A stretch of DNA of 46,384 nt from NCBI GenBank assembly GCA_039187915.1, contig JBCCZJ010000001.1:1-46384 (forward strand), in the 5' to 3' direction. This document shows positions 7,844 to 36,269 of this stretch, one piece after another (the first letter of the stretch is position 1; each line of letters starts with the position of its first letter). The notes under the pieces were generated by a model that saw nothing but the letters and a program-made list of their open reading frames with translations, was not told the origin of the DNA and ran no database searches. Source of the stretch: Myxococcota bacterium. Its GTDB lineage: Bacteria > Myxococcota_A > UBA9160 > UBA4427. Position numbers and translations under genes: made by a program.

Positions 7844-7851
7844 GCCGGGAG

Positions 7852-7879: not shown

Positions 7880-7926
7880 CCGTGCCAGCGCCCCTACAGG
7901 ATCGGGTGCCCGCGCGAACAGGACGC

Positions 7927-8779: not shown

Positions 8780-8984
8780 GTCCGACCTCCCCGGCGGCGG
8801 TCGCTCCGCCCCTTCCGTGAAGAATAGCCGAATCACGTTCCAAGCAGGCGCCGAACACTCCTCTCGACCGCGGCCTCCCATTCGATACGAGGGCCCGATT
8901 CAGAATCGGCTCGGAGCATCCGATGGGAGAACCAGCCGCGACGTGTATGCTTTCGAAACCAGAACGCGGAGGGCAGTTGATTCG

Positions 8985-9992: not shown

Positions 9993-10049
9993 TCTCCGCT
10001 CCGACGGGCAGCGACGCAACGCGACGCGTCCGAGGCGGATCCATCGCGG

Positions 10050-11168: not shown

Positions 11169-11171
11169 GTT

Positions 11172-11711: not shown

Positions 11712-11730
11712 TTCGTTCCTCGCGGGAAGG

Positions 11731-12894: not shown

Positions 12895-13016
12895 GGCAGC
12901 TCCGGTTGAAAGGGTCGCGCATCGATATGTCTCGAGCGAGACCGATTGTGTCCCAACGGACGCGGAGCGTCCAGGAAATACGTCCGTCGAGCGCGAAGGA
13001 CCGGCGCACGCTCTCT

Positions 13017-15421: not shown

Positions 15422-15484
15422 CGTCCTCTCGATCGGTTCCGCCGGCCGCGGCTCACCTGGCCCACTCGAATCTCCCCTTTTCTG

Positions 15485-16564: not shown

Positions 16565-16696
16565 CGGCCCCGGTATAGCAACTCGAATCCACGACTGTCT
16601 CAGGAAAGGGTCAGGAGGGTCGATGGGCTATACACGGCGCGACTTTCGACTGAACCCTCAACGACGGTGGCCGACATCGGGGCTTGGAGGATTCGG

Positions 16697-18274: not shown

Positions 18275-18366
18275 TCCCCTCGATTACTCGAACGCTTGGA
18301 GCGGGGCCTCAAGCGAACCCCGCAGGTGGCCGCAATGTTCTCAAGCGATGCATCACCGGACGGCGC

Positions 18367-19644: not shown

Positions 19645-20384
19645 TGTATGTCGTCCTCGGGATGCACAAGTCCGGCACAACCTTGGTATCGCGGATGCTC
19701 CACGAGTCCGGGATCGAGATGATCCAACCGGGCCTCGACCGCAGTCAGACCGACTACGACGAGGGCGCCTATTTCGAACGGGAGCGGGTGATCGACCTCA
19801 ACCGCGATCTCCTCGGCTTCGGTCAGCCCGCGCATCGCTATCCGAAGCCGCGACGACTCGAAGCTTCAGAAGACCAGCGCACGGAGATGCGTCGGATCCT
19901 GGGAGACGCTGAGCCGGAAGAAGGAGTCGATTGGGGCATCAAGGAGCCGCGGCTCTGCTTGACCTACCCACTTTGGGAACCCGAGATGCCCGAGCACCGG
20001 GTGATCGCGGTCTATCGCGAACTACCCGAAGTCTGGAGTCACTACAAAACCAGGTACAGCCCACGCCGTGAGATCTGGTGGGCCGTGAGGGCCTGGTCGG
20101 ACTACAACGAGGGCGTCCTTTCGGTCCTCGACGAGGGTAAGCGCGACGCCATCGTCATTCAGTATGAACGCCTGATGACCGAGCAACGCGAGTTCGATCG
20201 GCTCGCCGAATTCATCGGCCGGCCGCTCAGCGACATGCGGAAGCCAGACAAATACCGGAGCCGATCTATGGGCGCGCGTGCTCTCGCAGCCGTCGAGCTG
20301 ACTCGCCGGGCCTGCGGCTTGTCCGCGCCCTCTCGCATCGCTGAACGGCTCCACGCACACCGCAGACGACAGTATTCGGCCTAG
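19644..20384 (+). CDS. Sulfotransferase family protein (PAPS-dependent type)
   Basis: 5'-PSB P-loop VVLGMHKSGTTLVSRML at the N-terminus and a 3'-PB-like VYRELPEVWS. The ATG at 19644 shares one nt with the Wzy stop (TGATG). Confidence 0.75.
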   Translation: MYVVLGMHKSGTTLVSRMLHESGIEMIQPGLDRSQTDYDEGAYFERERVIDLNRDLLGFGQPAHRYPKPRRLEASEDQRTEMRRILGDAEPEEGVDWGIKEPRLCLTYPLWEPEMPEHRVIAVYRELPEVWSHYKTRYSPRREIWWAVRAWSDYNEGVLSVLDEGKRDAIVIQYERLMTEQREFDRLAEFIGRPLSDMRKPDKYRSRSMGARALAAVELTRRACGLSAPSRIAERLHAHRRRQYSA

Positions 20385-22090
20385 CGAGCACGCCCGATCG
20401 CGCTGCAGCTGGGCACCGGACCCCGCGCTTCCCCCGCAGCATCGAGCGAACGGACCGCGCCTGCGGCTTCGTCGGCGAGGTAGTAGCGCCCAGATTGAGT
20501 CGCGCTCGCGCAGACTGCGCCGAACCCGGGGAGCTCGATGCTCACGTCGTCTCGATTTCCTTCCGGACTCTGCGCCAAGACGAGCCACTCGCGGTTCGGG
20601 GTTTCCCCGCGGACGTAGGCGATCGCCCAGACGGGCATCTCGCTGGTCGGCGTCCACTCACCATCCGGCCCGGGCCGAGTCTCCAGCGCGAACCACGGCG
20701 GGTTCGCCGCGATGGTTTCGGGGAGATCGAGTCGGTGCGGATGTGCGCGGGACGGGTTGGGAACCAGCCGCCCTCTCTCGTAGAAGCGACGAAGAATCGG
20801 CGACGCGTGCACCGCGTCGATCACGCGCTGTATGCCCGCAAGCTCCTCATAGAAGCCTTCCACGCGTCGATCGCCGTAGTTGAACAGTCGGACGACCTGC
20901 GGACGCGCGAGCCAGGTCCCGACTTTGACCAGCCCCACGTATCGATCGATCGTGTAGGGCCTCCCCTTCCGTTTCTCCGCGTCGCGGTACTCCGGATCCA
21001 CCCACGTCGAGAGCTCCCAGAAGAAGTCGGGATCGACTGCGCACGCGTCCGCCAGGTGTAGCGGTAGGTACATGCCCGCCGACTGCGGTCCGAAGACCGA
21101 ACGGTCCTCTTCGCCTCTCTGGTGCGTGATGTAGTAGCGCGGGGAAGCGCCGTCCCAGATCGTCGGAAAGATGCTCAGCCGACCCGGGATAGTGAGGCCG
21201 AAGAGCGGCTGGCCTCCGTGCATCCAGCTCGATCGGTTGGAGCGCTTCTTCGTCCGTCCCATGAAGGCGTTCGCACCGCCCCACGTTACGAAGCGCACGC
21301 GGGATCGCCAGGAGACCAGACCTTCGCGAATCCCTTCGATCATCGCGGTGTAGCGTTCGATGTAGCCGTCCCCGAACTCGCGTCGCGTCTGCTCGAACGC
21401 GGCCCTCCTCGAGCCGACCCGGGGACCGGGGATCTTCTCCGACTCGAACCAGCGCAAGCGATCGGACTCGTTGTTCGAAACGAAGTAGACGACGGGTGGA
21501 TCGGGGTATCTCCGTTGCATCTCGCGCAGGATTGGCGACCGCGCCCAGAGCCTACCGACGGCTCGCCACGACTCGACGTCACCGTACGGCGAGAGACGCG
21601 GCTTGCCCTTGGGCAGGTCCTCGCGAACCACTGTCGCACCAGATGAACCGGGTACGGGTGCAATCCCGTCGAAGCGGTAGAGAAGCTCTTCCCACTGCGT
21701 GAAGAGCATGGCGAACTCCCGCCCCTGCTCCGCCGCCGCGCCGAGTGCCGGCCCGTAGAACCGCTCCGCCCAGGAGTCCCAGACATCGTCGTGATACCGG
21801 AGCGGAAAGACCAGCTGCCATCGATGGCCTTCACGAATCCAGTCGAGCTGCCAGTTCGGGGTCGTCGTACCGGCGTTTCCGCGCCGACGACTCGTCCAGT
21901 GAGAGAGGAGCGGGAGCGGGCGTGGCGTCTCGCAGGCGGAGGGCCAGGTAGGAGCACGGGCGGGTAGTGGCGCAGCGGAGACCGACTCTACGCGAGTCGG
22001 AGAAGCAAACGAGACGTCGACGAATGGCTGCGCCGGCACGCTGCAAGCCAAGACGAGAAGGACGAGTCCGAGCCAATACCTCACCATCAT
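20381..22090 (-). CDS. Secreted or lipid-anchored protein of unknown function (569 aa)
   Basis: Signal peptide MMVRYWLGLVLLVLACSVPAQP (possible lipobox Cys). Consistent GC3 bias over 1.7 kb. I recognise no family motif. GAGGAG is directly upstream, so the start may be the GTG at 22084. It is the last gene of the minus-strand glycan operon. Confidence 0.7.
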   Translation of the reverse strand: MMVRYWLGLVLLVLACSVPAQPFVDVSFASPTRVESVSAAPLPARAPTWPSACETPRPLPLLSHWTSRRRGNAGTTTPNWQLDWIREGHRWQLVFPLRYHDDVWDSWAERFYGPALGAAAEQGREFAMLFTQWEELLYRFDGIAPVPGSSGATVVREDLPKGKPRLSPYGDVESWRAVGRLWARSPILREMQRRYPDPPVVYFVSNNESDRLRWFESEKIPGPRVGSRRAAFEQTRREFGDGYIERYTAMIEGIREGLVSWRSRVRFVTWGGANAFMGRTKKRSNRSSWMHGGQPLFGLTIPGRLSIFPTIWDGASPRYYITHQRGEEDRSVFGPQSAGMYLPLHLADACAVDPDFFWELSTWVDPEYRDAEKRKGRPYTIDRYVGLVKVGTWLARPQVVRLFNYGDRRVEGFYEELAGIQRVIDAVHASPILRRFYERGRLVPNPSRAHPHRLDLPETIAANPPWFALETRPGPDGEWTPTSEMPVWAIAYVRGETPNREWLVLAQSPEGNRDDVSIELPGFGAVCASATQSGRYYLADEAAGAVRSLDAAGEARGPVPSCSAIGRAR

Positions 22091-22108: not shown

Positions 22109-23098
22109 TCAGAGCCCACCGATCTCCGCCGACGGATCGCCGATCCAATAAGCATCGGTCGGCAGCACGCGACCCGCCCGGTAGACGTCCACCCCGAAAC
22201 GTTCGAGGACCGCCATTGCGCGGGCCTCTTCGCCGGCGTCGACCCGCCGCCGCCATCGGCCGACCAGCTCGCGCGCGCGCTTCTCCTCGTCGACGTTCCC
22301 GTGCAGGAGCTCGCTCGTCTCGGCGTCTGACTTCTTCACTGTATGAGACGGGACGTCGAGCCCATTGTAGAGACGCGCCGGATCAGCCAGCGCGAGATGC
22401 TCCACCAACCGATCGAGGATCGGGCGCGGATCCAGAACGAGCTGTTCGTATGTGACGAACAACCAGTCGGGCTCGCGAGCGCGGAGAGGGACGGCGTTCT
22501 GCAGCGTCCAGTCGAGCACGCCCCGATCGAGCGTTGTCCCTTCAGAGAGGATCCGCCGGGCGTAGACGCGCTCTCCCTCGTCGAAGAAGCCGGCGAAGTC
22601 GCTCTCGAGGAACGTCTCGAGCCGAGGCAGCACCTCGCGGGACAGGCTGACCGGAATCGGGTGACGGAGCAGCACGATCACGCGCCCGTTGACGGCATCC
22701 GCGATTCGCTGGATCCGTTCCTCCCCGCCGTGGAGGACCTTGAAGACCGTCCGTGTCGTGCGGAAGCGATGGGTGCGGTCGCGCGGGCTCGGATTGAGCG
22801 TCTTCAGCCGCCCCGACGCCAGGTCTGTGAAGTAGGCCTCGACGCGGGCGTCCGCTTCCCGCGAGTAGAGAGCGGGCCAGTCTCCGAGACCGATTCCGCG
22901 ACGCACATCCGGGTGGCGCAGGTTGAGCGGCTCATTGCAGTGCTTGAAGCCGGGCTGGCTCGTCACGAGCTCCATCAACCAGGTCGAACCACTTCGCGGG
23001 GTCGTAAAAATCAAGACATTCGGCGAACCGTCGGGTCGATGGCGGTTAGACCATCGCCGGGCCAGTCGCGCGGCGGTCTCGCGGATCGGATTCACCAT
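22109..23098 (-). CDS. Sulfotransferase family protein
   Basis: P-loop VLIFTTPRSGSTWLMELV and 3'-PB-like VLLRHPIPVSLS. The ATG at 23098 lies 1 nt after the upstream GT stop. The track ORF's 63-codon N-terminal extension overlaps the GT gene. Confidence 0.75.
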   Translation of the reverse strand: MVNPIRETAARLARRWSNRHRPDGSPNVLIFTTPRSGSTWLMELVTSQPGFKHCNEPLNLRHPDVRRGIGLGDWPALYSREADARVEAYFTDLASGRLKTLNPSPRDRTHRFRTTRTVFKVLHGGEERIQRIADAVNGRVIVLLRHPIPVSLSREVLPRLETFLESDFAGFFDEGERVYARRILSEGTTLDRGVLDWTLQNAVPLRAREPDWLFVTYEQLVLDPRPILDRLVEHLALADPARLYNGLDVPSHTVKKSDAETSELLHGNVDEEKRARELVGRWRRRVDAGEEARAMAVLERFGVDVYRAGRVLPTDAYWIGDPSAEIGGL

Positions 23099-23099: not shown

Positions 23100-24248
23100 T
23101 CAATCCGCCTCCCCGAGGAGCGACGCATAGACCTCGAGGTAGCGCCGCGCGATGGCCGACCAGTCGTAATCGTCGGATCTCTGCCACGCGATCTCGGCAA
23201 GCTCGCTCCGGAGGTGCTCATTCGAGAGCAGGGCTCCGATCGCCTCGCCCATGGCGTCGAGATCGCGGACCGGCACAAGCAACCCACAGCCGTTGGCTCG
23301 GACGACGTCGGCGTTGCCGGGCACGTCGGTCACAACGAGTGGGAGGCCGCAGGCCATCGCTTCGATGCTGACCAGGCTGAGTCCTTCGACGATCGACGGG
23401 GAAAAAAAGAGGCAGGCGGAGTTGAAGCTCTCCGCGACTTCGTGTGAAGCGACCTCTTCCACGAGGTGGACACGCCCATCCAGACCGAGCTCCGAGACGA
23501 GCATCGCGTGCGAAGAGACCCCGCGTCCGATGATCGCGTAGTGGACGTCGTCGAATCGAGGGTCGCCCAAGAGCGGCGCGAAGGCATGGATCCCGTCGGC
23601 GTAGGCTTTCTTGATGTGGTCCCGGCCGACGGAGACGACGAATCGTGTATCGTGCGGAACACCGACCCGATCGTGCAGGAACGTCGAAGGATTCCGTGTG
23701 AAGCGCTGCCGATGGATGCCGTTCGGGACGATGTGCACGCGCTCGGGGGCCACGCAGTCGAGCTCTCCCCGGATCGACTCGGAGATCGCCGTGACCGCGT
23801 TCGCGCGCTGGAGGTGATCCTCGATGCGCGCGTTCCACTCGGGTTCGAGTCGCAGCCCGTACCCTATATCGGGGAAGCGCTGCACGTCCTTGCCATGCGG
23901 CGTCATCACGCTCGGGATACTGCGTCGCTCGAAGAACGAAAGGCCCCAGAATGGCGCGCGGGCCACGCCGTGGAAGTTCACGATGTCCACTGGATGTTCG
24001 CGCTGGAGCTTCGAAAGCGTGCGGGAAACCGAGAGTCGGAAGAGTCCGGACCGCATCGCGCCGCGGAATAGCAACCCGTATCGGATAAGGCGATAGCGAT
24101 GCTCGGGACCGCCCGGCGTCTTCGTCCGGTTCGCGAGAACCGTGACCTCGACGCCGGCGTCGACGAGCGCCTCGGCCAGGTAGTGAACGACGTATTCCAT
24201 CCCCCCGACATCGGGCAGGAATCGACCTGCGAAGAGCAGAACGTGCAC
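23100..24248 (-). CDS. Glycosyltransferase family 1
   Basis: VHVLLFAGRFLPDVGGMEYVVHYLAEAL N-terminus. GT1 C-terminal motif FFSPSIVEGLSLVSIEAMACGLPLVVTDVPG. GTG at 24248 with GGAGGAG 6 nt upstream. Confidence 0.85.
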   Translation of the reverse strand: MHVLLFAGRFLPDVGGMEYVVHYLAEALVDAGVEVTVLANRTKTPGGPEHRYRLIRYGLLFRGAMRSGLFRLSVSRTLSKLQREHPVDIVNFHGVARAPFWGLSFFERRSIPSVMTPHGKDVQRFPDIGYGLRLEPEWNARIEDHLQRANAVTAISESIRGELDCVAPERVHIVPNGIHRQRFTRNPSTFLHDRVGVPHDTRFVVSVGRDHIKKAYADGIHAFAPLLGDPRFDDVHYAIIGRGVSSHAMLVSELGLDGRVHLVEEVASHEVAESFNSACLFFSPSIVEGLSLVSIEAMACGLPLVVTDVPGNADVVRANGCGLLVPVRDLDAMGEAIGALLSNEHLRSELAEIAWQRSDDYDWSAIARRYLEVYASLLGEAD

Positions 24249-24343
24249 GTCAGGCTCCTCCAACGCCGCGAACCCGGCCGAGTTTCGCGGTCCCGATGCT
24301 GGTTCCGCCCCGCGAGCCGGTGACGTTCTTTGATTCGACCATA

Positions 24344-25498
24344 TCAGTTCGGCCTCAAACCCCGATACACCCGGCTCACCGAAGCGACGACAGACTCCTT
24401 CGAGAAGCGCGCGACGGCGAGCGCCCGAGCAGGATTCCGACTCTTCTCGCGGCGATCCGCGTCGCGCGACCACTTGGTCAAGGCCGCTGCCAGGGCCGTC
24501 GCATCGCCTGGCTCGACGAGACTACCGATGGCGTCCTCGACAAGATCTTCGCTACCGGAGACGCGCGTGCAAACGACCGGGAGCCCGCACCCGAGCGCCT
24601 CCATCAGACTGTTGGAGAGACCCTCTATCGAAGAACTCGAAACGTAGAGATCGGCTGCGTGGTACCAGCTCAGCGGATCTTCGCAGTTGCCTTCGAAGCG
24701 GACCGCGCCCGGCGGCAGTGTCTCCGCGGCGTGCGCTCGGGTCGAGGTCGCGAGGGGGCCATCGCCCAGCACTACGAGCAGGGCCTCCGGGTTCGACGCG
24801 ACCAGTGAGGCAAAAGCATCGACCAGGACGTTGGGCGACTTCTGCGCCGTGAGCCGGCCCACGAAGAGCAGCACCACCCGATCGTCGACGCCGAATTCGC
24901 TGCGCGCGGAGGCGCGTTCCGCTTCGGACGGCGGACGGAAACGGTCGCAGTCCAGCATGTTCGGAACCGCGTGGATCCTGTTTGCTGGGATTCCGAAGTC
25001 GCTCGCCTCGCGAGCCCCGCGCTGACTCGTCGCAAGGCAGCCGTCGACGCAGCGATGGAGCGCGATATGGAGCGCAGAGGGGAAAAGAGCTCGGACCGTC
25101 GCGGCCAGTCCGCGGTCGCCGGTGTTCGTCAGCTTCACGACGACGGGCCGCCGCAGCAGACGACCCATAAAGACGGCGACCGAACACGCGACGCCGTACT
25201 GATGCACGTGCCAGACGTCATAACGACGACCTCGAGCCGCGAGAAACCAGGCCAGCGAGAGGACCGACGTCAGCGTGTGGATCCCTGGCTTCGGCAGAAC
25301 GGGGATCCGACGGACCCCGACGCCTCCGATCGCCTCGCTTCGCGGCCACGCGCGATCGCGACGCTCTGTGACGACGTCGACCCGACATCCGCACTCGGCG
25401 AGGCCGACCGACAGTCGCTCGGCCGCCCGTTCGTAGCCGCCGACGATCGGTCTGAACTGGGGCGAGACCATCAACACGGCCGGATCAGCACCACTCAC
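24344..25498 (-). CDS. Glycosyltransferase family 1
   Basis: VLMVSPQFRPIVGGYERAAERL N-terminus. C-terminal YVSSSSIEGLSNSLMEALGCGLPVVCTRVSG. GTG at 25498 in a GTGA overlap with the upstream sulfotransferase stop. Confidence 0.85.
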   Translation of the reverse strand: MSGADPAVLMVSPQFRPIVGGYERAAERLSVGLAECGCRVDVVTERRDRAWPRSEAIGGVGVRRIPVLPKPGIHTLTSVLSLAWFLAARGRRYDVWHVHQYGVACSVAVFMGRLLRRPVVVKLTNTGDRGLAATVRALFPSALHIALHRCVDGCLATSQRGAREASDFGIPANRIHAVPNMLDCDRFRPPSEAERASARSEFGVDDRVVLLFVGRLTAQKSPNVLVDAFASLVASNPEALLVVLGDGPLATSTRAHAAETLPPGAVRFEGNCEDPLSWYHAADLYVSSSSIEGLSNSLMEALGCGLPVVCTRVSGSEDLVEDAIGSLVEPGDATALAAALTKWSRDADRREKSRNPARALAVARFSKESVVASVSRVYRGLRPN

Positions 25499-26424
25499 GG
25501 ATCCGACCCCGACTGCGCGGCGTCTCTCTGCTCCGACGCGTGGGGGTGGAGACGAAAGAACCAAGGCGGCAGCGGTGCTCGACCCTCGCGCCGACGCGCA
25601 CGGGAAACCACGGCTCGCAGGATCGAGATCGGCGTCGCGGCGAACAAGCCTTCGAGAAGCGAAAGCAAGCGTCGCTCCCATCCGGACAGGGCGTCATCGC
25701 GCGTCCGGTCGCCGGAGAAGCTCGTGTTCGCCGCGAAGTCGCTGCCCAGCAGACGCGAATCGAACGGTAACTCGAGGTGGTCCGAAATCCGTCGCATTGT
25801 CGCTTCGAGATCGGATCTCATCTCGGCGTAGGTCAGGCACACGATCCGATCGCTCCCCTGGGCGTATCCGTCGACGAGCCGGTTGAAGTAGCTCCACCGC
25901 AACGCGACCGAAAAGATGTGCTTGAGTCTCGAAGTCGCGCCCGTCAGAGACGAATGTCGCTCCATTCCGAGACTCGACCCCACCACCGACTCGAGCGCTC
26001 GTTTCACCGAGACGAAGCGCGCATCGGGGTAGCGCCGAGCGATCTCGTCGACGAACTCCGTGTGGGCCGGCGTCTTCTCGATCCAGTAGCGAGCCCCTGC
26101 TCGACGAGCGACTTCTTCCATGATCCGACGGAAGAGTTGGTCGTAGTCGATCGGCCACTCGGCGTAGAGGAAGGCGCGGTCGATCTCGGCGATCCGGCAG
26201 TAGTCGCTCTCGGCGAGGACTTCGACCAGCTCGATGAAGTTCGACCGTGTCCGCAGATCTCCGTAGCGACCGTCCAACGAGCTGAACCAGGCGCTCTCGT
26301 GGATACCGTGGTGTCGTTCGTGCTGGACACCGGCGATCTCCGGATGCCGGCAGAGCTGGTTCGCCAGCCACGTAGTGCCCGAGCGGTGATTGCCCAGCAC
26401 GAAGAGCGGTCGCGAAGAGCCCAT
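25495..26424 (-). CDS. Sulfotransferase family protein
   Basis: P-loop LFVLGNHRSGTTWLANQL and WIEKTPAHT. The 3'-PB-like block is RFVSVKRALESVVGSS. Confidence 0.8.
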   Translation of the reverse strand: MGSSRPLFVLGNHRSGTTWLANQLCRHPEIAGVQHERHHGIHESAWFSSLDGRYGDLRTRSNFIELVEVLAESDYCRIAEIDRAFLYAEWPIDYDQLFRRIMEEVARRAGARYWIEKTPAHTEFVDEIARRYPDARFVSVKRALESVVGSSLGMERHSSLTGATSRLKHIFSVALRWSYFNRLVDGYAQGSDRIVCLTYAEMRSDLEATMRRISDHLELPFDSRLLGSDFAANTSFSGDRTRDDALSGWERRLLSLLEGLFAATPISILRAVVSRARRREGRAPLPPWFFRLHPHASEQRDAAQSGSDP

Positions 26425-26428: not shown

Positions 26429-27190
26429 TCAGCGCCCGCTGCCCGAAAGCATCGGCTTTTCGAACTCCGCCACGAGAAGCACGCGGAACCGGCTCAGCGC
26501 GGGAACGTGATTCACGATCCGTTCCCAGATCCAACCGACGAGATACGTCGGCGCCGAGATCCGGAGGTATTCGGGCCGGCTCTCGATCAAGTCCACGCTA
26601 CGGACCACGAGCCCTGCCGCTTCCGCGAGCCGCGCCACCGCCGAGGGCGTGTTCGCCCGATAGCGCGTCGGGAAGGTGTCCTCCGGCGGACGCCCGCGAA
26701 GCCGATTGAAGAATCGATGGAAAGAGTGGGGCGTGAGCGACGCGACGAGCGGAACGTAGTGGAGCTTGTTGGGCGTCTTGACGAGGAATCGACCGCCAGG
26801 CTTCAGCACACGCGCGACTTCCTCGAATACCCGTTCGGGCTCCGCGAGATGCTCGAGAACGTTGTCGGAAAAGACGAGATCGAACTGCTCATCGGGCCAG
26901 GGGACTTCTTCGGCACCGCCATGCCGTCCCTCGTCGAGATAGGGGTTGTCGACCACGCGCGGATCGAGATCGAGGCCCACGATCGAGGCGCATCGACCCT
27001 TGAAGTTCATCTGCGCCACGAAACCCGCGCCAGCCCCGATGTCAAGGACGTGAAAATCCTCGCTCATGCGTTCCAGAATCCGGTCGCGGAAGAGCTCGTC
27101 GTCCCAGTTGTCGCGCACGTCGGGATACCAACGCCCGTCGAGCCGCTCGACGAGGGAAGGCGATCGCTCTTCCAGATCGAGATCGGTCAC
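26429..27190 (-). CDS. Class I SAM-dependent methyltransferase
   Basis: Motif I VLDIGAGAGFVA, acidic loop GLDLD, motif post-II DLVFSDNVLEHL, and LKPGGRFLV. GTG start in a GTGA overlap with the upstream gene. Confidence 0.85.
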   Translation of the reverse strand: MTDLDLEERSPSLVERLDGRWYPDVRDNWDDELFRDRILERMSEDFHVLDIGAGAGFVAQMNFKGRCASIVGLDLDPRVVDNPYLDEGRHGGAEEVPWPDEQFDLVFSDNVLEHLAEPERVFEEVARVLKPGGRFLVKTPNKLHYVPLVASLTPHSFHRFFNRLRGRPPEDTFPTRYRANTPSAVARLAEAAGLVVRSVDLIESRPEYLRISAPTYLVGWIWERIVNHVPALSRFRVLLVAEFEKPMLSGSGR

Positions 27191-29343
27191 GAGGACTCCG
27201 CTCCCGGCCGAGGCAAGACCACGGGCGCCCCGGTTCGCGAGGACTCGACCATCGCGAAGGTGGTCCGGGTCGCTCCGCTGATCTCGACGAGGCGCATTGG
27301 CGAAGGACCGCCCTCGCGTACGCAGCGTCCGAAATCAGCGATCGCGGTCGCCTGGCCCTTGTCCTGATTGAGCGTCCGGAGCGGCTTGCGTCCCGGCATC
27401 GACGTCACCCGAAAGTTGTCGCAGATCGCGCTGCGGCCGTCGGCATGCACCTCCCAGCGTTCTTTCGGCAGCTCGGCGCTCGCGAGCGCCAGGTAGTGGA
27501 TCGTGGCGGTTGAGCCGTCGGCGTACCCGAGCGTCGCCACCATCGAATCGTCACGGCTCGCGTCTTCGGAAAGGGCCCGCGCGACGACCCAGGTCGGTGT
27601 CGAACCGACCATGTAGTCGCAGAGGTCGACGAAGTGACACGCCTCGCCCAGGATGCGGCCCCCACCCGTGATCTCGTCCATGATCCAGGTCCCGGCGGGC
27701 GCCGAGCCGGCTGCGACGGTGTAGTGCATCGCGAGCGGCCCAATGCGGCGGCCGAGCCACTCGCGCGCCGTCTTCGCGTGTTCGGAGAAACGGCGGTTGA
27801 AGCCCACCATTAGCGGCGCGTCGGTCGCGCCGGCGGCCGCCTCCAGCTCGGCCAGCTCCGCCTCCGAGAGCGCTGCGGGCTTCTCAAGCCAGACGGCCTT
27901 GCCAGCGCGGAGCGCTGCGGTGGCGAGCGAGGCGTGCGAATCGTGTCGCGTCGTGACGAACACTGCATCGATGTCGTCCGCGCTGAAGACCTCGTCCGGA
28001 TCGGTGCCGTAGCGAGCGAAACCGAAACGCTCCGCGACGTTGTGCGCACTCGGCCCCGTGGCCGTCACCACGTGCTGCGGTTCAGCGTCGCCGGCGCTGC
28101 GCAACGCCGGCAGGAGCATACCCTTGGCGTAGTTGCCGGCGCCGATGAACCCGACGCGCATTCGACCGGAAGCGCTTCTCTTCGCCGGAAGCGCCTCTCC
28201 GTGCGTCTTACGTCGATCGGGCTCGTCGCCGTAGCGGAAAACGACAGCGAGGGATCGACGCTCCCCACTCGCGAGGGCCTCGTAGGCCTCGGGTGCGAGC
28301 TCGAAGTCGACGACCTCCGTGTCCATCCGGCTGGGATCGACCGCCCCCCTCGCTGCGAGGTCGAGAAAAGCCTGCAGATTGCGCTGTTCCGTCCATCGCA
28401 CGTAGGCGACCGGATAGTCGACGCCGCCCTCTTCGTAACGGTAGTCGTATCGACCGGGGCCGTACGACATGCTCATCCGAAGGTCGAGCTCTTTCTCGTA
28501 GAACGTGCGTCGATCAAGGTCCATCGCCGTTGCGCCCACGCACACGACGCGTCCCTTGTGGCGGCAGAGCTCCGCCGCAAGGGCGACCGGCGCGGAGCTG
28601 TCCGAGGCCGCAGTGACGATCGTGAGGTCGACACCATGGCCGCCCGTCAGCGCCGAGAGCAGACGGTCGTGATCGTCTCCGGGAGCGCCCCCGAACTCCA
28701 TTCCCTGGGCCTTCGCCTCTTCGACACGCTTCGGATCGAGATCGAGGCCGTAGACCCGACAGCCGTTCGCCAACAACAGTTGGACCGTGAGCTGGCCGAT
28801 CAGGCCGAGCCCGACCACGGCCACGACTTCGCCGAGGGTCGGCTCCGCGACACGAACGCCCTGGAGCGCGATCGCACCGAGGGTCGCGAACGCCGCTTCC
28901 TCGAGGCCGAGCGTCTCGGGGACATGCGCCGTGAGGTTCTCCGGCACGACGACGAGCTCCGCATGGTTGGCATAGCCAGCCCCCGCGCACGCGATGCGAT
29001 CGCCTGGGGAGACCGACATCACGCCCTCCCCGACGGCCTCGACGATCCCGGCGCAGGCGTAGCCGAGCGGCTGCGGCGCATCGAGCCGATTCATGACCGT
29101 GCGATAGGTCGGCAGCGGCCCTTCCTGCATCAGCTTCCGGGTCACCTGCTTCACCAGATCCGGCCGGCTTCGCGCCTTCCCGAGAAGGCTCTTGCGCGCG
29201 AAATCCATCGCCATCTTCTCGGTGCCGGGCGACATCACGGAAAAGGCGTTCCGAACGAAGACCTGCCCCGGCGCGACGGCGGGTGCCGGCACGTCGACGA
29301 GCTCGAGCTTTCCGCTCTTGGCGCTCTGGAGGATCTGCTTCAC
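27187..29343 (-). CDS. Bi-domain oxidoreductase: N-terminal MDR/Zn-alcohol-dehydrogenase-like + C-terminal Gfo/Idh/MocA
   Basis: N-domain: GYACAGIVEAVGEGV, PGDRIACAG, Rossmann VAVVGLGLIGQL. C-domain: RVGFIGAGNYAKGMLLPAL and the GFO-family EKP motif (VWLEKPAAL). GTG at 29343 in a GTGA overlap with the DUF362 gene stop. Confidence 0.85.
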   Translation of the reverse strand: MKQILQSAKSGKLELVDVPAPAVAPGQVFVRNAFSVMSPGTEKMAMDFARKSLLGKARSRPDLVKQVTRKLMQEGPLPTYRTVMNRLDAPQPLGYACAGIVEAVGEGVMSVSPGDRIACAGAGYANHAELVVVPENLTAHVPETLGLEEAAFATLGAIALQGVRVAEPTLGEVVAVVGLGLIGQLTVQLLLANGCRVYGLDLDPKRVEEAKAQGMEFGGAPGDDHDRLLSALTGGHGVDLTIVTAASDSSAPVALAAELCRHKGRVVCVGATAMDLDRRTFYEKELDLRMSMSYGPGRYDYRYEEGGVDYPVAYVRWTEQRNLQAFLDLAARGAVDPSRMDTEVVDFELAPEAYEALASGERRSLAVVFRYGDEPDRRKTHGEALPAKRSASGRMRVGFIGAGNYAKGMLLPALRSAGDAEPQHVVTATGPSAHNVAERFGFARYGTDPDEVFSADDIDAVFVTTRHDSHASLATAALRAGKAVWLEKPAALSEAELAELEAAAGATDAPLMVGFNRRFSEHAKTAREWLGRRIGPLAMHYTVAAGSAPAGTWIMDEITGGGRILGEACHFVDLCDYMVGSTPTWVVARALSEDASRDDSMVATLGYADGSTATIHYLALASAELPKERWEVHADGRSAICDNFRVTSMPGRKPLRTLNQDKGQATAIADFGRCVREGGPSPMRLVEISGATRTTFAMVESSRTGAPVVLPRPGAESS

Positions 29344-30869
29344 GCGGGCACGCCTGGACGGCAGTCGGGGGAGAGCTCGGCGGTGGCACCCTGTTCGATG
29401 TGCCCGATCCAGCCGGCATGGGCCTCGAAGGCGCGCTCCCACCGGATCTCGTCGAGCGATCGATCGACGACCTCGCTTGTTCCCCGCTCGACCTCGCCGA
29501 CGACGACGTCATGCGCCACGCGGACGCCCGTAATTCTCGGACCCTCGTCCTGCATCGGACCGAGCACGGTCGCCAACCGCTGCTCGTCGAAGCCCATCAA
29601 GCGGACGGCGGCCAGATCGACGGCGACCGGATCCGTGCTCGCGACTACGGCACCCAGCGGCACGTCCGCCGGCGCGAGCGGTCCCTCTCCCTCTCCTGCG
29701 AGTACGCCGTCGATGATCGTGAGTACGGTCCGAACAGGACCGGGGGCGTCGATATGGAGCCCGTCGCGGTCGCTGTAGTAAAGACAACGGTTCAGGTCAC
29801 AGCACATCCGCCAGGTCGTCCGGTTGCCGTACCAGTTTCCACTGCGGATGAACTGGTCCCCGCGCGCTGCGGCCTCCACCCTGCGCGCCGCCTGAAAGAC
29901 GCGAAGCAGCTTACCCTTCGCGAGGAGCGGTCGCGCGATCTCGGTGGCGCGGCTCCGGAGTCGATCGATCAGCCGGCTCTCTGGGAACTCGTCTCCGCCT
30001 TCATCCACGGCGCCGAGGCTGTGATGGGGCAACCAGTTCTTATCGCCGTTAATGCCGACGAGGTTCTTGAGCGCGAGCGTGACGCCGGTCTTCTTATGCG
30101 TCTTGAGCTTGGGCAAGTTGATGACCAGATCTGCGGACAGCACGGTTTCGGAGAGCAGGTATGCGTTTCGGCCGCCGCTATGGTGCTCCGCGGTCGGGCC
30201 AGGGTCATAGTCTGCGCCCCGGAACCGGTTCGGATCGAGACCGGACCCGGTAAAGAAGCTCCGGTCCCCCAGATCGACGGCGCGATACCCGGCGGGATCG
30301 CCAGGCAACGATCGGCGTTCCTGGATGATCCCGTCCCGAAAGACGACCGCTTCGCGACGCAGGTCGATCACCTCCAGCTCGCGTTCGATCGTCCCTTCGT
30401 AGAGTCTGACGAGCCCGTCGAGTCCGACGATCTCACGGATCGATTCGAAGTCGCAGTCCATCTGCGGCGCTTCGGCGATCGCGACGCTGCCGTTGGGTCC
30501 CGCCGCGATCATCGCGTAATCGACGACCGCGCGGATGATCGCGCCGTGCGTGATCACGCTGTCGACCGTCCCGCCCCGTCCATCCGAAGCCGGATTCCAA
30601 TGACGGATCAGGTTCGGCTTGATCACGATCCGCCGACCCGGCTCGACCAACGCGCCGATCGGATTCCAGTCTGCGGTCCCGAACCGATCGCGATCCAGGC
30701 CCATCGCGCGGAGCACGCTCCGCACGGCACCATAGACCTCGTTGACAGGACCTTCGGATGCGCAATCGCCGAGCAGACGGTCGATCTCCGGATAGCTCTT
30801 CCCCGGACCCCAGGGAGCCAAGAGCCCCTCGTAGCTCGGCGTACAGCGCGCGAGACCCACCCGAATCAT
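29340..30869 (-). CDS. DUF362 domain-containing protein
   Basis: IVIKPNLI and LPKLKTHKKTGVTLALKNLVGINGDKNWLPHH match my memory of the DUF362 signature blocks. No Fe-S Cys cluster is evident. The ATG at 30869 shares one nt with the upstream stop. Confidence 0.7.
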   Translation of the reverse strand: MIRVGLARCTPSYEGLLAPWGPGKSYPEIDRLLGDCASEGPVNEVYGAVRSVLRAMGLDRDRFGTADWNPIGALVEPGRRIVIKPNLIRHWNPASDGRGGTVDSVITHGAIIRAVVDYAMIAAGPNGSVAIAEAPQMDCDFESIREIVGLDGLVRLYEGTIERELEVIDLRREAVVFRDGIIQERRSLPGDPAGYRAVDLGDRSFFTGSGLDPNRFRGADYDPGPTAEHHSGGRNAYLLSETVLSADLVINLPKLKTHKKTGVTLALKNLVGINGDKNWLPHHSLGAVDEGGDEFPESRLIDRLRSRATEIARPLLAKGKLLRVFQAARRVEAAARGDQFIRSGNWYGNRTTWRMCCDLNRCLYYSDRDGLHIDAPGPVRTVLTIIDGVLAGEGEGPLAPADVPLGAVVASTDPVAVDLAAVRLMGFDEQRLATVLGPMQDEGPRITGVRVAHDVVVGEVERGTSEVVDRSLDEIRWERAFEAHAGWIGHIEQGATAELSPDCRPGVPA

Positions 30870-32260
30870 CAGCTTGACCTCCCGATCCTGGACTTCACGG
30901 CGCGGAACTTACCATTCGCTTCCCTGGGAATCGATTCGACGCGATGCAGATCGACCCGAATCTGCTCGCCCAATCGAGACCGGATCTCCTTCATGAGCAC
31001 GGCCTCGGCACGCGTATCGAAACCGTCTCTCGGGACCACGCGGACTTCAATGGCGTCCTTCGTCTCCTGGAGGATCTGGGCCTCGGCAACATCGAGTTGC
31101 TCCTTGAAAATGTGGTCGAGTCGACCGATCCAGCGGCCGTCGGGCGTGACCACGTAGTCTTCGATGCGACCGTCGACGTCGAGAAATACCTCGCCGGGCC
31201 GGCCGCAGGCACACGGATGCTTCGACCGCGTTCCGACGTCGCCGATTCGGTAGCGGAGCAGCGCCATCGCATCGTTCGCGAAGCCCGTCACGATGAGCGG
31301 CCCTCGCACCCAGTCTTCGGTTTCTTGTTCGACCTCGACCTCGACGATTCCGAACTCCATATCGACATGGAGCCGACCCTCTTCACACCCCGTCATCGAC
31401 GTGACCAGCTCGCTGGTCCCATATCGGTCGTAGATCGGCGCAGCGAACGCTTTCTCGATCACTTCTCGATGGAACGCGAGAAGCGACTCCGAAGAAGGCA
31501 GCACAGCATGCAGCTTGCCGGAGGGGAGCGGTCGACCCTGCTCCAGCATCGCGCGCCCCAGCAGATGGAGCGAAGAGGGGTAGCCCTGGACGTAGGTCGC
31601 CGGGATCGCGTGCAGTGCGTCGACGTAGGCTGGAAGGTTCTCTTCCGTCATGTGATAGAGAGAGAAGAGCGTCTGCCGGCCCCAGGCGTTTGTTCTCCAG
31701 TAGGGCGGGCGCGACTGGGACAGCGGGACGAGCATCTGGCCGCCGAAGGTGAAGCTCGCGTCGCCCAGCTCGATGCCGATCCATCGGCGGATCCGCCAGA
31801 CGGCCGCGTACTCCTCGGCGACGGCTTCGGGCGTGTACCAAAGGGGCAGTGCCGATCCGGTAGTCCCGCTCGTCTTGCCCTTGACGAGTCCTTCGAGAGG
31901 GAGGTCGTCCGCGCGATACCGCTCCGGGGAATCGCGATAGGCCTGCTTCTCCAGGACGGGGAGAGCGGCGAGGATCTCCGCGATGCCTTCGCGTGGATCG
32001 GCGTTCGGCAAGAACTCGGGCAGCATGGCCTCGCGATAGACGGGGACCCGCAGGCGCGCCCGATCGAATACCCGGCGCAGGCGTTGGTACTGGAGGGCGA
32101 TCAGCGCCTCGTTGGAAGAGCGACCGGATTCCATCCAGGCTGCGAGCGAGCGATGGAAATGCGGCGTGTACCGTCCGCGCCATCGACGCACTCCCGCCAG
32201 AGTGCAAGCCACGTTCTGGAGCGGAACGGGCAACCGTGCATAGATCGCGTCGGTATTCAC
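30869..32260 (-). CDS. Phenylacetate-CoA-ligase-like adenylate-forming enzyme (PaaK / CapK / F390-synthetase family)
   Basis: AMP-binding P-loop GKTSGTTGSALPLWY, YDRYGTSE, C-terminal GKFRAVKS, and a ~460-aa size typical of CapK-like proteins in capsule loci. GTG at 32260 in a GTGA overlap with the EEP gene stop. Confidence 0.8.
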   Translation of the reverse strand: MNTDAIYARLPVPLQNVACTLAGVRRWRGRYTPHFHRSLAAWMESGRSSNEALIALQYQRLRRVFDRARLRVPVYREAMLPEFLPNADPREGIAEILAALPVLEKQAYRDSPERYRADDLPLEGLVKGKTSGTTGSALPLWYTPEAVAEEYAAVWRIRRWIGIELGDASFTFGGQMLVPLSQSRPPYWRTNAWGRQTLFSLYHMTEENLPAYVDALHAIPATYVQGYPSSLHLLGRAMLEQGRPLPSGKLHAVLPSSESLLAFHREVIEKAFAAPIYDRYGTSELVTSMTGCEEGRLHVDMEFGIVEVEVEQETEDWVRGPLIVTGFANDAMALLRYRIGDVGTRSKHPCACGRPGEVFLDVDGRIEDYVVTPDGRWIGRLDHIFKEQLDVAEAQILQETKDAIEVRVVPRDGFDTRAEAVLMKEIRSRLGEQIRVDLHRVESIPREANGKFRAVKSRIGRSS

Positions 32261-33279
32261 GCCGCCGCCTCGTCCTTCAGGTGCACGGTCGCGACGACCG
32301 GGAGGTGATCCGACGCCTTGCGCGCGGCGGGCGAGTCGTGTTCGCGAACGTCGATCACGTCGGCGTTCCGCGAGTAGATCCGGTCGAGGGAGAGCAGGGG
32401 CCGGCTCGAAGGAAAGCTCGCTGGCCAGTCGAGGTTGTGATGGAGACCGAGGCTCTCCTCGAGCACCTGCGATCCCTTGCAGTTGCGCCAGGCGTTCATG
32501 TCGCCCATCAGCACGGCGGGGCCGGCGTTCAGGGCCGGATGCTCCATCAGGGTCTGGACCTGGCGATGGCGGGTGCGGTCGACCAGGGAGAGGTGGGTGG
32601 CGACGACGCCGAGGTTCGCACCAGCGGTGCCGACGTGGGCCGCCAGGGCGCCGCGGCGCTCGATGCGCGAGAAGGAGATGTCCAGCACGGAGACGCCGGT
32701 GATCGGGTAGCGGGAGAGGATGGCGTTGCCGAGCTGACCGCGGCTATGGCGCCGGGTGGCCGCGAAGGCCATGTAGAGGTCGAGCTCGTCGCAGAGCTGC
32801 CCGAGCTCGTCGTCGGCGGTCGGACCGGCGTCGTCGAAGGGCCGCAACACCTCCTGTAGGGCGATCACGTCGGCGTCCATTTCGGAGATGACGTACCCCG
32901 CCCGCGCGACGTCGGGCTTGGCTCGCCCGTTCGCTCCCTGCCAACGATGGACGTTGTACGTGGCCACGCGCACTGAGTCGGACATGATCACAGGCGGTAT
33001 CGGCCGTCTGGGGCTCATGACCAAGCACAAATGCGGCTCGAGCGGCAGCTTCCGGGCCGTCTCCACGGCCTCTCGCGCCTGGTTCACCGACTCCCGCGCC
33101 TGGCTCCCGAGGGCCTTCACCCGCTCCTCGGCCTGGTCGCGGGCCTTGCGCGCGAGGTTCCGCGCACGGGCCGTCGCTTCGGAGGCGCGGTCCCCGGCGC
33201 GGGTCGCGCGACCGCGCAGATCGCGAGCGGCCGCCTCGGACGGGCGACGACGAGCGGCCTTCTTGGGCTTCGCTGCCAC
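32257..33279 (-). CDS. Endonuclease/exonuclease/phosphatase (EEP) family protein with a basic helical N-terminal extension (start uncertain)
   Basis: EEP motifs VATYNVHRW, VIALQEV, GDMNAW and SDHLPVVATV. The same frame stays open to 33576, and 33061-33120 has 19/20 GC at third positions, so the region upstream of the catalytic domain is coding. Candidate starts are GTG 33279 (chosen), ATG 33018 and ATG 32985. Confidence 0.7.
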   Translation of the reverse strand: MAAKPKKAARRRPSEAAARDLRGRATRAGDRASEATARARNLARKARDQAEERVKALGSQARESVNQAREAVETARKLPLEPHLCLVMSPRRPIPPVIMSDSVRVATYNVHRWQGANGRAKPDVARAGYVISEMDADVIALQEVLRPFDDAGPTADDELGQLCDELDLYMAFAATRRHSRGQLGNAILSRYPITGVSVLDISFSRIERRGALAAHVGTAGANLGVVATHLSLVDRTRHRQVQTLMEHPALNAGPAVLMGDMNAWRNCKGSQVLEESLGLHHNLDWPASFPSSRPLLSLDRIYSRNADVIDVREHDSPAARKASDHLPVVATVHLKDEAAA

Positions 33280-33911: not shown

Positions 33912-35312
33912 ATGTCCGTTTCCGATCCCTTTCCCGCTTTCTCCCCGCCGCCCGCCGCCGTCGAGGCGCCGGCCCGCACCCTCGTCGCCGCCCTCGCCCG
34001 GACGGCCGACGCCCGTCCGCCCCTCGACACCGACGACTACTCGACCCGCCTCGCCCGGCTCGGGATGCTCCGCGCGGCGCCCCCCGCCCTGCCGGTGCTC
34101 GCCTCGGGTCGCGGCGAAGGTGCGTCCGTCGTGCTCGCCGACGGGCGCCGGATCCTCGATCTCGTCGCCGGGCTCGGGCCCTACGTCTTCGGCCATCACG
34201 ACGAGGATCTGCTCGAGACCGCGGCGATCGCAGCGGCGAGCGACGTCGCCTTCCAGAGTCACGTCCTGCCGGGCCCGCAGTACGCCGCCCTGACCGAGCG
34301 CCTCGTCGCGCTCGCCGGTCCGCGGCTCTGCCACGCGTGGCTCGCGCTCTCGGGATCGATGGCGAACGAGAACGCGCTGAAGATGCTCTTCCAGCGGGCG
34401 GCGCCCGCCGATCGGGTGATCGCGTTCGAGCGTGCCTTCCACGGGCGGACGCTCGCGATGGCCGAGCTCACGGATCGGCCGACCTACCGCGAAGGCCTCC
34501 CGATCCGGGACTTCGTCGATCGAGTGCCCTTCTATGATCCGCAGGATCCCGAATCGACACAGAAGAGCGTCGCTGCGCTCGAGTCGCGGATCGCCGCCCA
34601 TCCCGGTCGCCACGCGGCGATGTGCTTCGAGTTGATCCAGGGCGAAGGTGGATTCCACGACGCACCGCCCGCGTTCTTCGTCGCGCTGATGGAGACCTGC
34701 CGCCGGGCGGGGATCCGCATCTGGATCGACGAGATCCAGACCTTCGGCAGGACGCGCGCGCTCTTCGCCTGGAAGACGCTCGGCCTCGACGCCTACGTGG
34801 ACGTCGTCACCGTCGGAAAGATCCTGCACGGAAGCGCCACCCTCTTCACGCCCGAGCTCGCCCCCCGACCGCGACTGATCGCGGGCACCTGGGCCGGCTC
34901 GACCGTCGGGATGGCGCTCGGCGCGCGCATCCTGGAACGCCTCGCGAACGAGGGCTACGCCGGTCCGGGCGGTCGGATCGATCGCCTGACCGACTGGCTC
35001 GACGCGGCCTTCGAACGGCTCGCTCGCGCGCTTCCCGGCGTCGTGACCGCGCGCTCGGGGCGGGGCGCCATGCAGGCCTTCGTGCCGTGGGACGGCGACG
35101 CGACGCTCACGAACGAGATCGTCGCGGTCGCGGTCGAGGAAGGCGTGCTCGTCCAGACGGCGGGCGGGAACCCGACGAAGATCCGACTGCTGCCGCCGCT
35201 CAACGTGACGGAGGAGGAGCTGGCCCAGGGTTTCGCCGCGCTCGAGCGGGCGCTCGTCCGGGTCGCGCGGAGACACGCTTTGCCGCTCTTCGACGTGGCC
35301 ACGCCGCGTTAG
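33912..35312 (+). CDS. Class-III (PLP-dependent) aminotransferase
   Basis: LSGSMANENALKM, AFHGRT, IWIDEIQTFGRT and VTVGKILHG (PLP lysine). ATG at 33912 with GAGG 7 nt upstream. The upstream part of the 660-aa track ORF is Arg/Pro-rich non-coding read-through. Confidence 0.85.
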   Translation: MSVSDPFPAFSPPPAAVEAPARTLVAALARTADARPPLDTDDYSTRLARLGMLRAAPPALPVLASGRGEGASVVLADGRRILDLVAGLGPYVFGHHDEDLLETAAIAAASDVAFQSHVLPGPQYAALTERLVALAGPRLCHAWLALSGSMANENALKMLFQRAAPADRVIAFERAFHGRTLAMAELTDRPTYREGLPIRDFVDRVPFYDPQDPESTQKSVAALESRIAAHPGRHAAMCFELIQGEGGFHDAPPAFFVALMETCRRAGIRIWIDEIQTFGRTRALFAWKTLGLDAYVDVVTVGKILHGSATLFTPELAPRPRLIAGTWAGSTVGMALGARILERLANEGYAGPGGRIDRLTDWLDAAFERLARALPGVVTARSGRGAMQAFVPWDGDATLTNEIVAVAVEEGVLVQTAGGNPTKIRLLPPLNVTEEELAQGFAALERALVRVARRHALPLFDVATPR

Positions 35313-35339
35313 GCGAGACGGAAAGGGCGTCCCTTCGGA

Positions 35340-35924: not shown

Positions 35925-36269
35925 CTCGCTCTCCCCCGGTTTCCCCGATACGGGGAACGCGAAGCGTCGCGGGCTTCGGCCGCGCCGTCCAGCCGATCCC
36001 GCGACGAACCCCTTGAACCGATCGGTCCCCCCTGGATGAACGTGCGTTCCCCCCGGCGAAACGGCCCCTGGGGTCGCAGGACCGCCGAACCGCTCGTTCG
36101 TGGAAGTTCGACGGCTCGAATCTCGGTCAGGCAGAGCTAGACTCGCCCGGCCCCGCTTCCGGCTGCCGAACCCGGAACCACAGCGCCCCACGCGAACGGG
36201 GTTCCGACCGACGTCTCGCCGCCCACCCGCAGCCTGCCCTGCCGCGACCGCCTGGAGATTCACGCGCCC

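Follow-up and report, generated by a model that had tools for sequence, protein, structure and literature searches.

Which genes of a polysaccharide locus act together, and what might they do to the polymer, when a run of overlapping genes fits no pathway that can be named? This question is raised by a 46,384-nucleotide stretch of a Myxococcota genome (contig JBCCZJ010000001.1 of assembly GCA_039187915.1; "the window"), in which five genes follow one another on the minus strand between positions 26429 and 33279. They encode an EEP-family phosphoesterase (340 amino acids, 32257..33279), a CapK/PaaK-like adenylate-forming ligase (463 amino acids, 30869..32260), a long DUF362 protein (509 amino acids, 29340..30869), a bi-domain oxidoreductase joining an MDR to a Gfo/Idh/MocA domain (BiDom, 718 amino acids, 27187..29343), and a class I S-adenosylmethionine (SAM) methyltransferase (MT, 253 amino acids, 26429..27190). 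A preliminary description of the DNA had taken these five genes for one translational unit and one glycan-tailoring pathway. We find that the natural unit is a conserved, translationally coupled CapK–DUF362–BiDom module that is tied to glycosyl transfer. The annotation is thereby corrected from a five-gene cassette to a three-gene module, and the most interesting lead is a LarA-type signature in its DUF362 protein.

The CapK–DUF362–BiDom module and its conservation

All five minus-strand reading frames are present at the positions given above, and the four overlap junctions of the preliminary description can be read in the sequence. The EEP and CapK genes share a GTGA (32257–32260), as do the DUF362 and BiDom genes (29340–29343) and the BiDom and MT genes (27187–27190). 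The CapK and DUF362 genes meet in a TGATG, where base 30869 is common to both and a GGGAGG Shine–Dalgarno sequence lies upstream. The tight coupling of the five genes is therefore real; MT as its natural boundary is not, as the close spacing continues downstream. A gap of 4 nt separates the MT stop codon from a sulfotransferase gene (ST1), ST1 and the first of two GT4 glycosyltransferase genes (GT4a) possibly share another GTGA if GTG 25498 is the start, a single nucleotide lies between the second (GT4b) and sulfotransferase gene ST2, and 18 nt lie between ST2 and a gene for a 569-amino acid protein. Because tight spacing runs on past MT into the sulfotransferase and GT4 genes, the five genes appear to be an arbitrary slice of a longer operon; judged from the gene spacing, the transcription unit probably comprises ten genes over ∼13 kb, from 33279 to 20381. 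A scan for promoters and terminators between 19.5 and 35.5 kb stayed at chance level. Four-base overlaps are common in high-GC operons. Those within CapK–DUF362–BiDom are meaningful because they recur in homologous loci.

Close relatives of the DUF362 protein were sought by matching sequence patterns against 185,579 species genomes, which gives a lower bound, as the patterns catch close relatives only. At least 124 species genomes carry one, and nearly all of these hosts are uncultured Myxococcota; the few others are Acidobacteriota, Gemmatimonadota, Opitutales, Geobacter, and Marinicaulis metagenome-assembled genomes (MAGs). We compared 80 related loci with all proteins of the window and counted those with enough flanking sequence. 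The gene immediately upstream of DUF362 is CapK in 51 of 72 such loci, and the one immediately downstream is BiDom in 53 of 69. Of the 63 loci in which both flanks are available, 44 contain CapK as well as BiDom, BiDom stands alone in 13 and CapK alone in 6, so that every locus has at least one of the two partners. By gene calls, the same 4-nt overlaps occur within the triad in three related loci (L001, L002, and L004), and the three genes still overlap in L085, at 44–46% identity. Across the 80 loci, CapK, DUF362, and BiDom alone travel together, which speaks against the five genes forming a single pathway.

An exhaustive search extended this picture to 831 clusters (at 50% identity) of full-length, ∼500-amino acid DUF362 relatives (E < 1e-30). 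The distant clusters that we examined came from metagenomes or MAGs in every case. A tblastn search of DUF362 against plasmids gave no match, so that no cultured, annotated example of the long DUF362 protein was found. At 39–47% DUF362 identity, the module with its CapK-like and BiDom genes recurs next to AsnB-type amidotransferase, PGA_cap, and GT4 genes. Moreover, gene fusions link DUF362 to GT4 (five cases), DUF362 to PGA_cap (two cases), AsnB to DUF362 and GT4, and GT4 to CapK. Through these fusions, the module is physically connected with glycosyltransferases and with further enzymes that handle carboxylates or amides. Examples are the gene at 1442–4006 of L085 and proteins P0152, P0206, P0214, P0257, P0264, P0130, and P0144. 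The idea that CapK and AsnB are alternative partners of DUF362 was dropped, as seven loci carry both.

Exopolysaccharide loci that harbor the module, many of which belong to the exosortase type, come from uncultured Myxococcota and from a small number of further phyla. According to clustering of reading frames, recognizable sequences, and Pfam gene tables, its usual neighbors are an exosortase, EpsI, a sigma-54 response regulator, a polysaccharide export protein, a chain-length determinant, a carbamoyltransferase, a WcaI-like GT4, and a WecB-like 2-epimerase, in addition to Wzy. In most loci, the triad is flanked by GT4, Wzy, exosortase, flippase, or priming-transferase genes. Many triad loci thus resemble the PEP-CTERM/exosortase (EpsH/EpsI) exopolysaccharide loci, with exosortase, EpsI, sigma-54 regulator, chain-length determinant, AsnB, and GT4 genes. 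In contrast, the window has no exosortase, EpsI, WecB, or AsnB gene, and its triad resides in a sulfotransferase-rich Wzx/Wzy locus. The NCBIfam exosortase-system models do not match the triad proteins. The CapK–DUF362–BiDom module is widespread in uncultured bacteria, yet undescribed in the literature searched; it is built from known superfamilies for a known kind of job, glycan tailoring.

The genes on either side of the triad behave differently. In the window, the EEP protein (PF03372 Exo_endo_phos, 2.6e-18; 67 bits against a cut-off of 24.5) is 87% identical over its full length to its homologue in L001 and starts with the same residues (MAAKPKK), which supports the start at 33279 given in the preliminary description. 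Its N-terminal extension of ∼95 residues (32995–33279, minus strand) is basic, Ala/Arg-rich, and helical with ARDQ..ERV-type repeats, and is kept in the L001 homologue with one extra repeat. However, EEP precedes CapK in no more than 12 loci, all from the closest relatives, and in L001 the two are kept apart by three genes on the opposite strand, including one for a formyltransferase. Between the window and L001, identity is 83–94% for EEP, a class-III aminotransferase, and a Na/Ca exchanger and 66–81% for the triad, whereas the glycosyltransferase and sulfotransferase part is essentially unshared. The aminotransferase gene (33912..35312, plus strand; Aminotran_3, 2.8e-52) is divergent from the operon and occurs only in loci that also have EEP and the exchanger (L001, L006, L016, and L020). 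Because these three genes exceed the triad in conservation and vary together, they behave, in sequence comparison, as a conserved chromosomal flank and not as part of the module, and the polysaccharide locus resembles a variable island whose chromosomal site is constant. The conserved block consists of the exchanger, a small unannotated gene, the aminotransferase, and EEP (33912–37229 in the window, 529–5512 in L001). The methyltransferase (Methyltransf_11, 7.1e-21, 75.1 bits; SAM motif I VLDIGAGAG) follows BiDom in the window only; a lone 54% identical homologue in L008 is encoded on the opposite strand, 4 kb away. MT is a locus-specific accessory gene, and we infer that EEP, aminotransferase, and MT stand outside the chemistry of the triad.

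The DUF362 protein and the LarA superfamily

DUF362 is a large family of no known function. The protein of the window matches PF04015 with 94.2 bits (cut-off 24; 1.4e-26), its residues 205–423 covering profile positions 62–200. From an alignment of 127 homologues with 33–80% identity, AlphaFold2 produced a confident model (mean pLDDT 95, pTM 0.94). When the model was compared with the PDB by Foldseek, the matches at E ≤ 1e-3 were solely LarA-family enzymes, which use a nickel-pincer nucleotide (NPN; best E value 3.6e-6). The LarA-family fold matches 9q3k, 4nar, 8ezf, 9q3j, 6c1w, and 5huq have a probability of 0.99–1.0 and E values from 3.6e-6 to 3e-3. The LarA superfamily (5HUQ, 9Q3K, and 4NAR) thus provides the sole solved folds that resemble the model, although the DUF362 protein is ∼100 residues larger than LarA and contains inserted subdomains. 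This result agrees with the Pfam classification, where DUF362 and the N-terminal domain of LarA (DUF2088) share clan CL0471 (PMC11770544). At the sequence level, neither the single protein nor the profile of 127 sequences gave a meaningful match in the PDB.

The resemblance can be narrowed down to one region. Using a LarA motif taken from the PDB, we found that residues 246–284 of the DUF362 protein, which run from ADLVINLPKLKTH258 through KKTGVTLALK268 to NLVGINGDKNWLPH282H283S, are co-linear with residues 162–201 of LarA (ADLLISEGFIESH174, FFAGFSGGRK184, and SVLPGIASYKTIMANH200S). Both proteins share the motif ADLxI…H…G.[ST]…K…G…H, in line with His174, Lys184, and His200 of LarA. For this sub-region, hhalign returned P = 0.002, and the Smith–Waterman score was 41 compared with 21.3 ± 4.0 for shuffled sequences, of which 3 in 2000 reached 41. 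By sequence alignment alone, the sub-region places Lys268 on LarA Lys184 and His282 on His200 ± 1. His258 is present in 127 of 127 DUF362 homologues, and Lys268 and His282 are each present in 126. In LarA, His174 serves as a catalytic acid/base, the cofactor is tethered to Lys184, and nickel is bound by His200 (PMC11770544). Conserved lysine and histidine residues have served as a criterion to nominate new nickel-pincer enzymes (PMC13524815), and some LarA variants have only one catalytic histidine and are suspected to act on a carbohydrate (PMC12611868).

On the basis of model and motif, the DUF362 protein may therefore be a member of the LarA superfamily that retains the cofactor-binding signature, which the preliminary description had missed. 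An Fe-S cluster was rejected because the family has no conserved cysteine, so that the Fe-S association in the Pfam description is inapplicable here. Within the phylum, 80–100% of Myxococcota species carry LarA homologues (PMC11770544), and the cofactor pathway is therefore common there. The literature that we searched held nothing on the biochemistry or function of DUF362, and one apparent match concerned DUF3623. To our knowledge, no nickel-pincer enzyme is known in polysaccharide synthesis. The LarA enzymes known so far have a place in catabolism, where their substrates are free 2-hydroxy acids, and none in the biosynthesis of glycans. Nickel-pincer enzymes are a fast-expanding topic, and the link to LarA offers a concrete, testable lead for DUF362. 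If it is true, DUF362 (PF04015) would gain its first function, and glycan biosynthesis its first nickel-pincer enzyme.

Partner enzymes, proposed chemistry, and alternatives

The CapK-like ligase displays the intact motifs of ANL enzymes (KTSGTTGS, YGTSE, RIGD, GRIED, and ANGKFR), in agreement with the adenylate-forming enzyme that the preliminary description had recognized from TSGTTG. The family PF27533 (CapK_C), which takes its name from the CapK of Staphylococcus aureus, is precomputed on protein P0390, whose sequence is identical, and on each of the 120 homologues listed; the Pfam copy that we scanned was without the PF27533 model, and the ligase matched nothing there. Its matches in the PDB are the structures of PaaK, AjiA1, and NatL2 (6e-13 to 1e-11; PaaK 6e-13). 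NatL2 and AjiA1 transfer acyl-adenylates without CoA. CapK-like ligases received their first genetic function only in 2026, with VpsH. According to genetic data, Vibrio cholerae needs VpsH to form the glycine amide on L-GulNAcA of a lipid-linked disaccharide (PMC13463779). Like the ligase of the window, VpsH is a PaaK-like adenylate-forming enzyme whose gene lies in a Wzx/Wzy exopolysaccharide cluster, a likeness that we draw by description and not by direct sequence comparison; the biochemistry of VpsH, by adenylate or acyl-phosphate, is itself unproven.

BiDom is indeed a two-domain fusion, as the preliminary description had it, but its N-terminal half is no longer a zinc enzyme. The Gfo half (GFO_IDH_MocA, PF01408, 7.1e-21; GFO_IDH_MocA_C3, PF22725, 1.8e-9) has GAGNYA, LEKP, and GE.CH570 motifs that are invariant in 14 sequences. 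Nearest to it in the PDB are inositol dehydrogenase, 1,5-anhydrofructose reductase, glucose-fructose oxidoreductase, DgpA, and sugar 3-ketoreductases. The MDR half (ADH_zinc_N, 1.6e-15) possesses the canonical nucleotide-binding motif GLGLIG and a conserved insert of ∼50 residues. Its catalytic zinc ligands are gone: GYA replaces the GHE of butanediol dehydrogenase and alcohol dehydrogenases, and SPGTE stands at Cys46 in place of C-G-T-D. Zinc-dependent alcohol dehydrogenase chemistry was consequently rejected for this domain. BiDom thus shares the Rossmann fold, the EKP motif, and the catalytic histidine with Gfo sugar oxidoreductases such as inositol 2-dehydrogenase, 1,5-anhydrofructose reductase, and WbpB-type enzymes, and differs from them by the fused, zinc-less MDR domain with its insert. 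NCBI names the protein merely a "bi-domain-containing oxidoreductase." None of the triad proteins has an NCBIfam equivalog, all matches being far below cut-off, which bears out the earlier remark that the genes fit no nucleotide-sugar pathway that can be named.

A UDP-sugar 6-dehydrogenase is the usual source of a sugar carboxylate, and the window encodes none, nor does it encode WecB or a DegT aminotransferase. Among ∼85 related loci, a WecC/Ugd-type 6-dehydrogenase gene lies within 10 kb of DUF362 in two, never together with WecB. A WecB-like UDP-GlcNAc 2-epimerase gene is found within the same distance in 25 loci among L018–L084 (for example, L022, L062, and L084). The scarcity of WecC near WecB fits a role of BiDom in supplying the carboxylate, for which it is weak evidence.

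We propose that the three enzymes would act in the cytoplasm on a single sugar of the repeat unit and remodel it at the stage of the nucleotide sugar or of the lipid-linked intermediate. BiDom would begin with an NAD(P)-dependent oxidation, in which the Gfo domain would be of the type that acts on the sugar ring or the anomeric carbon and the zinc-less MDR domain would add a second redox step, possibly from the C6 hydroxyl to the carboxylate in two NAD(P)+-dependent steps. In this way, BiDom might replace the missing UDP-sugar 6-dehydrogenase and yield a sugar acid. DUF362 would then invert a hydroxyl-bearing stereocenter through transient hydride abstraction, plausibly with NPN tethered to Lys268, nickel bound by His282, and His258 as the acid/base. 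Finally, the CapK-like ligase would adenylate the carboxylate and pass it to an amine, forming an amide, or to an alcohol, a step proposed by parallel with the addition of glycine to L-GulNAcA by VpsH. In the Vibrio polysaccharide cluster, VpsA and VpsB (WecB/WecC-like) provide the uronic acid and VpsJ the epimerization, and the paper mentions no DUF362 or bi-domain oxidoreductase (PMC13463779). The scheme thus parallels the logic of VpsA/B, VpsJ, and VpsH, with unrelated dehydrogenase and epimerase proteins.

That the triad oxidizes, epimerizes, and amide-decorates one sugar of the polymer is the reading that we favor, with a probability of about 0.4 for the scheme as a whole, which draws on sequence motifs, a predicted structure, and analogy. 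The specific combination in which the long DUF362 protein is a new nickel-pincer branch that epimerizes the sugar, BiDom substitutes for the 6-dehydrogenase, and CapK amidates a uronic acid is unlikely to hold in every part. That a CapK enzyme has an epimerase-like protein and a double dehydrogenase as conserved partners nevertheless suggests rare amidated sugar acids made without the usual UDP-sugar dehydrogenase, and, if true, this route to such sugar acids would be widespread and unrecognized in uncultured bacteria.

Several observations weigh against this scheme, every chemical step of which is one that we infer. The similarity of the DUF362 model to the LarA fold is remote (TM score 0.22–0.27, ∼12% identity), and the region of the aligned motif was chosen by eye ahead of testing. 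Full-length hhalign comparison of the DUF362 family with six LarA genes retrieved from plasmids was insignificant (probability 0.9%), with a 15-column N-terminal match only, the motif being recovered solely in alignments of sub-regions, and Pfam Lar_N did not match DUF362 at E ≤ 10. His108 and Arg75 of LarA have no conserved counterpart, as the ATGxH108 segment aligns to AEAPQ in DUF362 and Arg89 at the position of Arg75 is found in 36 of 127 homologues. No larB, larC, or larE gene occurs in 1.43 Mb around triad genes, the window included. The triad is also not obligatory: within 10 kb, CapK is missing from 13 and BiDom from 6 of the 63 loci. In L099, a Zixibacteria MAG, a CapK–DUF362 pair without BiDom (5839–12214) is followed by a methyltransferase, a GNAT, and an ArnT-like PMT_2 gene, possibly a different acceptor system; on comparison, this methyltransferase was rejected as an orthologue of MT. 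The absence of WecC near WecB was judged on a 10-kb horizon only, and the window itself has no WecB. Lastly, PaaK-family enzymes usually activate free small acids, which favors a different route.

On that route, which retains the acyl-substituent idea of the preliminary description but limits it to the triad, BiDom and DUF362 would make a stereoisomer of a small hydroxy or aldonic acid by Gfo-type C1 oxidation of an aldose and LarA-type C2 epimerization or racemization, and the CapK-like ligase would attach the product as an N- or O-acyl group. Aldose 1-dehydrogenases are among the Gfo relatives, PaaK, NatL2, and AjiA1, the nearest PDB relatives of the ligase, activate free small acids, and the characterized LarA homologues use free 2-hydroxy acids, including gluconate and mannonate (PMC11770544). 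However, the sole CapK-like enzyme with genetic data, VpsH, acts on a lipid-linked glycan uronate (PMC13463779). Repeated fusions of DUF362 and CapK to GT4 fit glycan or nucleotide-sugar substrates better, and the triad has no conserved acyl carrier protein or separate acyltransferase among its neighbors in the related loci. A free acid as substrate is thus the main rival, and a live one, to the activation of a sugar carboxylate, possible though doubtful. An amino- or keto-sugar precursor in the style of WbpB/WbpE, made by Gfo oxidation at C3 or C4, transamination, and N-acylation by CapK, with DUF362 as a nickel-free isomerase, could account for the weak Gfo matches to UDP-GlcNAc 3-dehydrogenase and sugar 3-ketoreductases and for the separate Gfo and DegT pair in the cluster of L100. 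We regard it as quite unlikely, as the triad lacks a conserved DegT-type aminotransferase partner, the sole aminotransferase of the window is of class III and belongs to the flank, and the strict LarA-like conservation of His, Lys, and His would be left unexplained.

A pathway of all five genes, with EEP and MT obligatory and the divergent aminotransferase supplying the amine, would make sense of the overlaps that join the five in the window and of the 11 further close relatives in which EEP directly precedes CapK. It is very unlikely: EEP is missing from ∼60 other triad loci and parted from CapK in L001; EEP, aminotransferase, and Na/Ca exchanger behave as flank; MT follows BiDom nowhere else; and the tight coupling runs on into sulfotransferase and glycosyltransferase genes. 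An even smaller chance is left to a module that has nothing to do with the polysaccharide, such as a small-molecule or lipid pathway next to exopolysaccharide genes. The CapK–DUF362 pairs of Polarisedimenticola (L002) and Zixibacteria (L099) are indeed found among few classical exopolysaccharide genes, but the GT4, Wzy, exosortase, flippase, or priming-transferase neighbors of most loci and the repeated GT4 fusions make this independence extremely improbable. Remodeling of a polymer sugar by the triad thus remains our preferred reading, and a role in polysaccharide tailoring, as in the preliminary description, is the best reading of the GT4, MBOAT, sulfotransferase, and Wzx/Wzy genes that surround the triad.

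The surrounding polysaccharide locus

According to Pfam matches, the polysaccharide locus spans ∼11.7–33.3 kb of the window, the G+C content of which is 63–73%. The Pfam assignments confirmed the EEP, DUF362, ADH_zinc_N plus GFO_IDH_MocA, and Methyltransf_11 proteins and the divergent Aminotran_3 protein of the preliminary description. Judged from its gene content, this is a Wzx/Wzy-type polysaccharide locus with GT4 glycosyltransferases, an MBOAT protein, and several sulfotransferases. It is bordered by housekeeping genes, with MtnA-like, phosphoribosyltransferase, and Mg-chelatase-like genes on one side and the class-III aminotransferase, the Na/Ca exchanger, RmuC, and a TPP enzyme on the opposite side.

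Downstream of MT, the minus-strand operon continues with ST1 (25495..26424; Sulfotransfer_3, 6.2e-27), GT4a (24344..25498, start GTG 25498 or ATG 25471; Glycos_transf_1, 2.8e-31), GT4b (23100..24263, start approximate; Glycos_transf_1, 4.7e-28), and ST2 (22109..23098; Sulfotransfer_3, 1.9e-6), whose ATG at 23098 is preceded by GGGGAGG. Its final gene encodes the 569-amino acid protein (20381..22090), which has a hydrophobic N terminus and no Pfam match. A 40% identical homologue of this protein is encoded immediately 3′ of BiDom in L022/L004 (13630–15261), and it may be an occasional fourth partner of the triad.

The remainder of the locus (11731..20384) comprises, by Pfam, a GT4 gene, an MBOAT gene with a 326-amino acid partner, a further GT4 gene, a Wzx-like flippase (∼16799–18274, plus strand), a Wzy-like polymerase (18367–19644, plus strand), and ST3 of the Sulfotransfer_3 family (∼19650–20384, plus strand). 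The MBOAT gene (13017–14444, minus strand) and the Pfam-less gene of its partner (14441–15421, minus strand) overlap by 4 nt and resemble an AlgI/AlgJ-type pair for polysaccharide O-acylation. A fourth Sulfotransfer_3-family gene (42746–44278, minus strand) is located beyond the locus.

Sulfated bacterial exopolysaccharides are uncommon. The window contains four sulfotransferase genes, three of them inside the locus, which points to a sulfated product. The ten-gene operon, with the triad at its head, is predicted to serve a sulfated, methylated, Wzx/Wzy-dependent exopolysaccharide. Genes for the synthesis of 3′-phosphoadenosine-5′-phosphosulfate (PAPS) were not seen in the window. The analysis thereby draws attention to a predicted locus for sulfated exopolysaccharide in Myxococcota of marine type.

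A reading frame without Pfam match (35340–36986) separates the aminotransferase gene from that of the Na/Ca exchanger, at a position where L001 has an unannotated gene for 176 amino acids. Its C-terminal part (35340–35900, minus strand) contains a cysteine-rich segment (CSACKSE…CSVSTCNRK…CTVDC).

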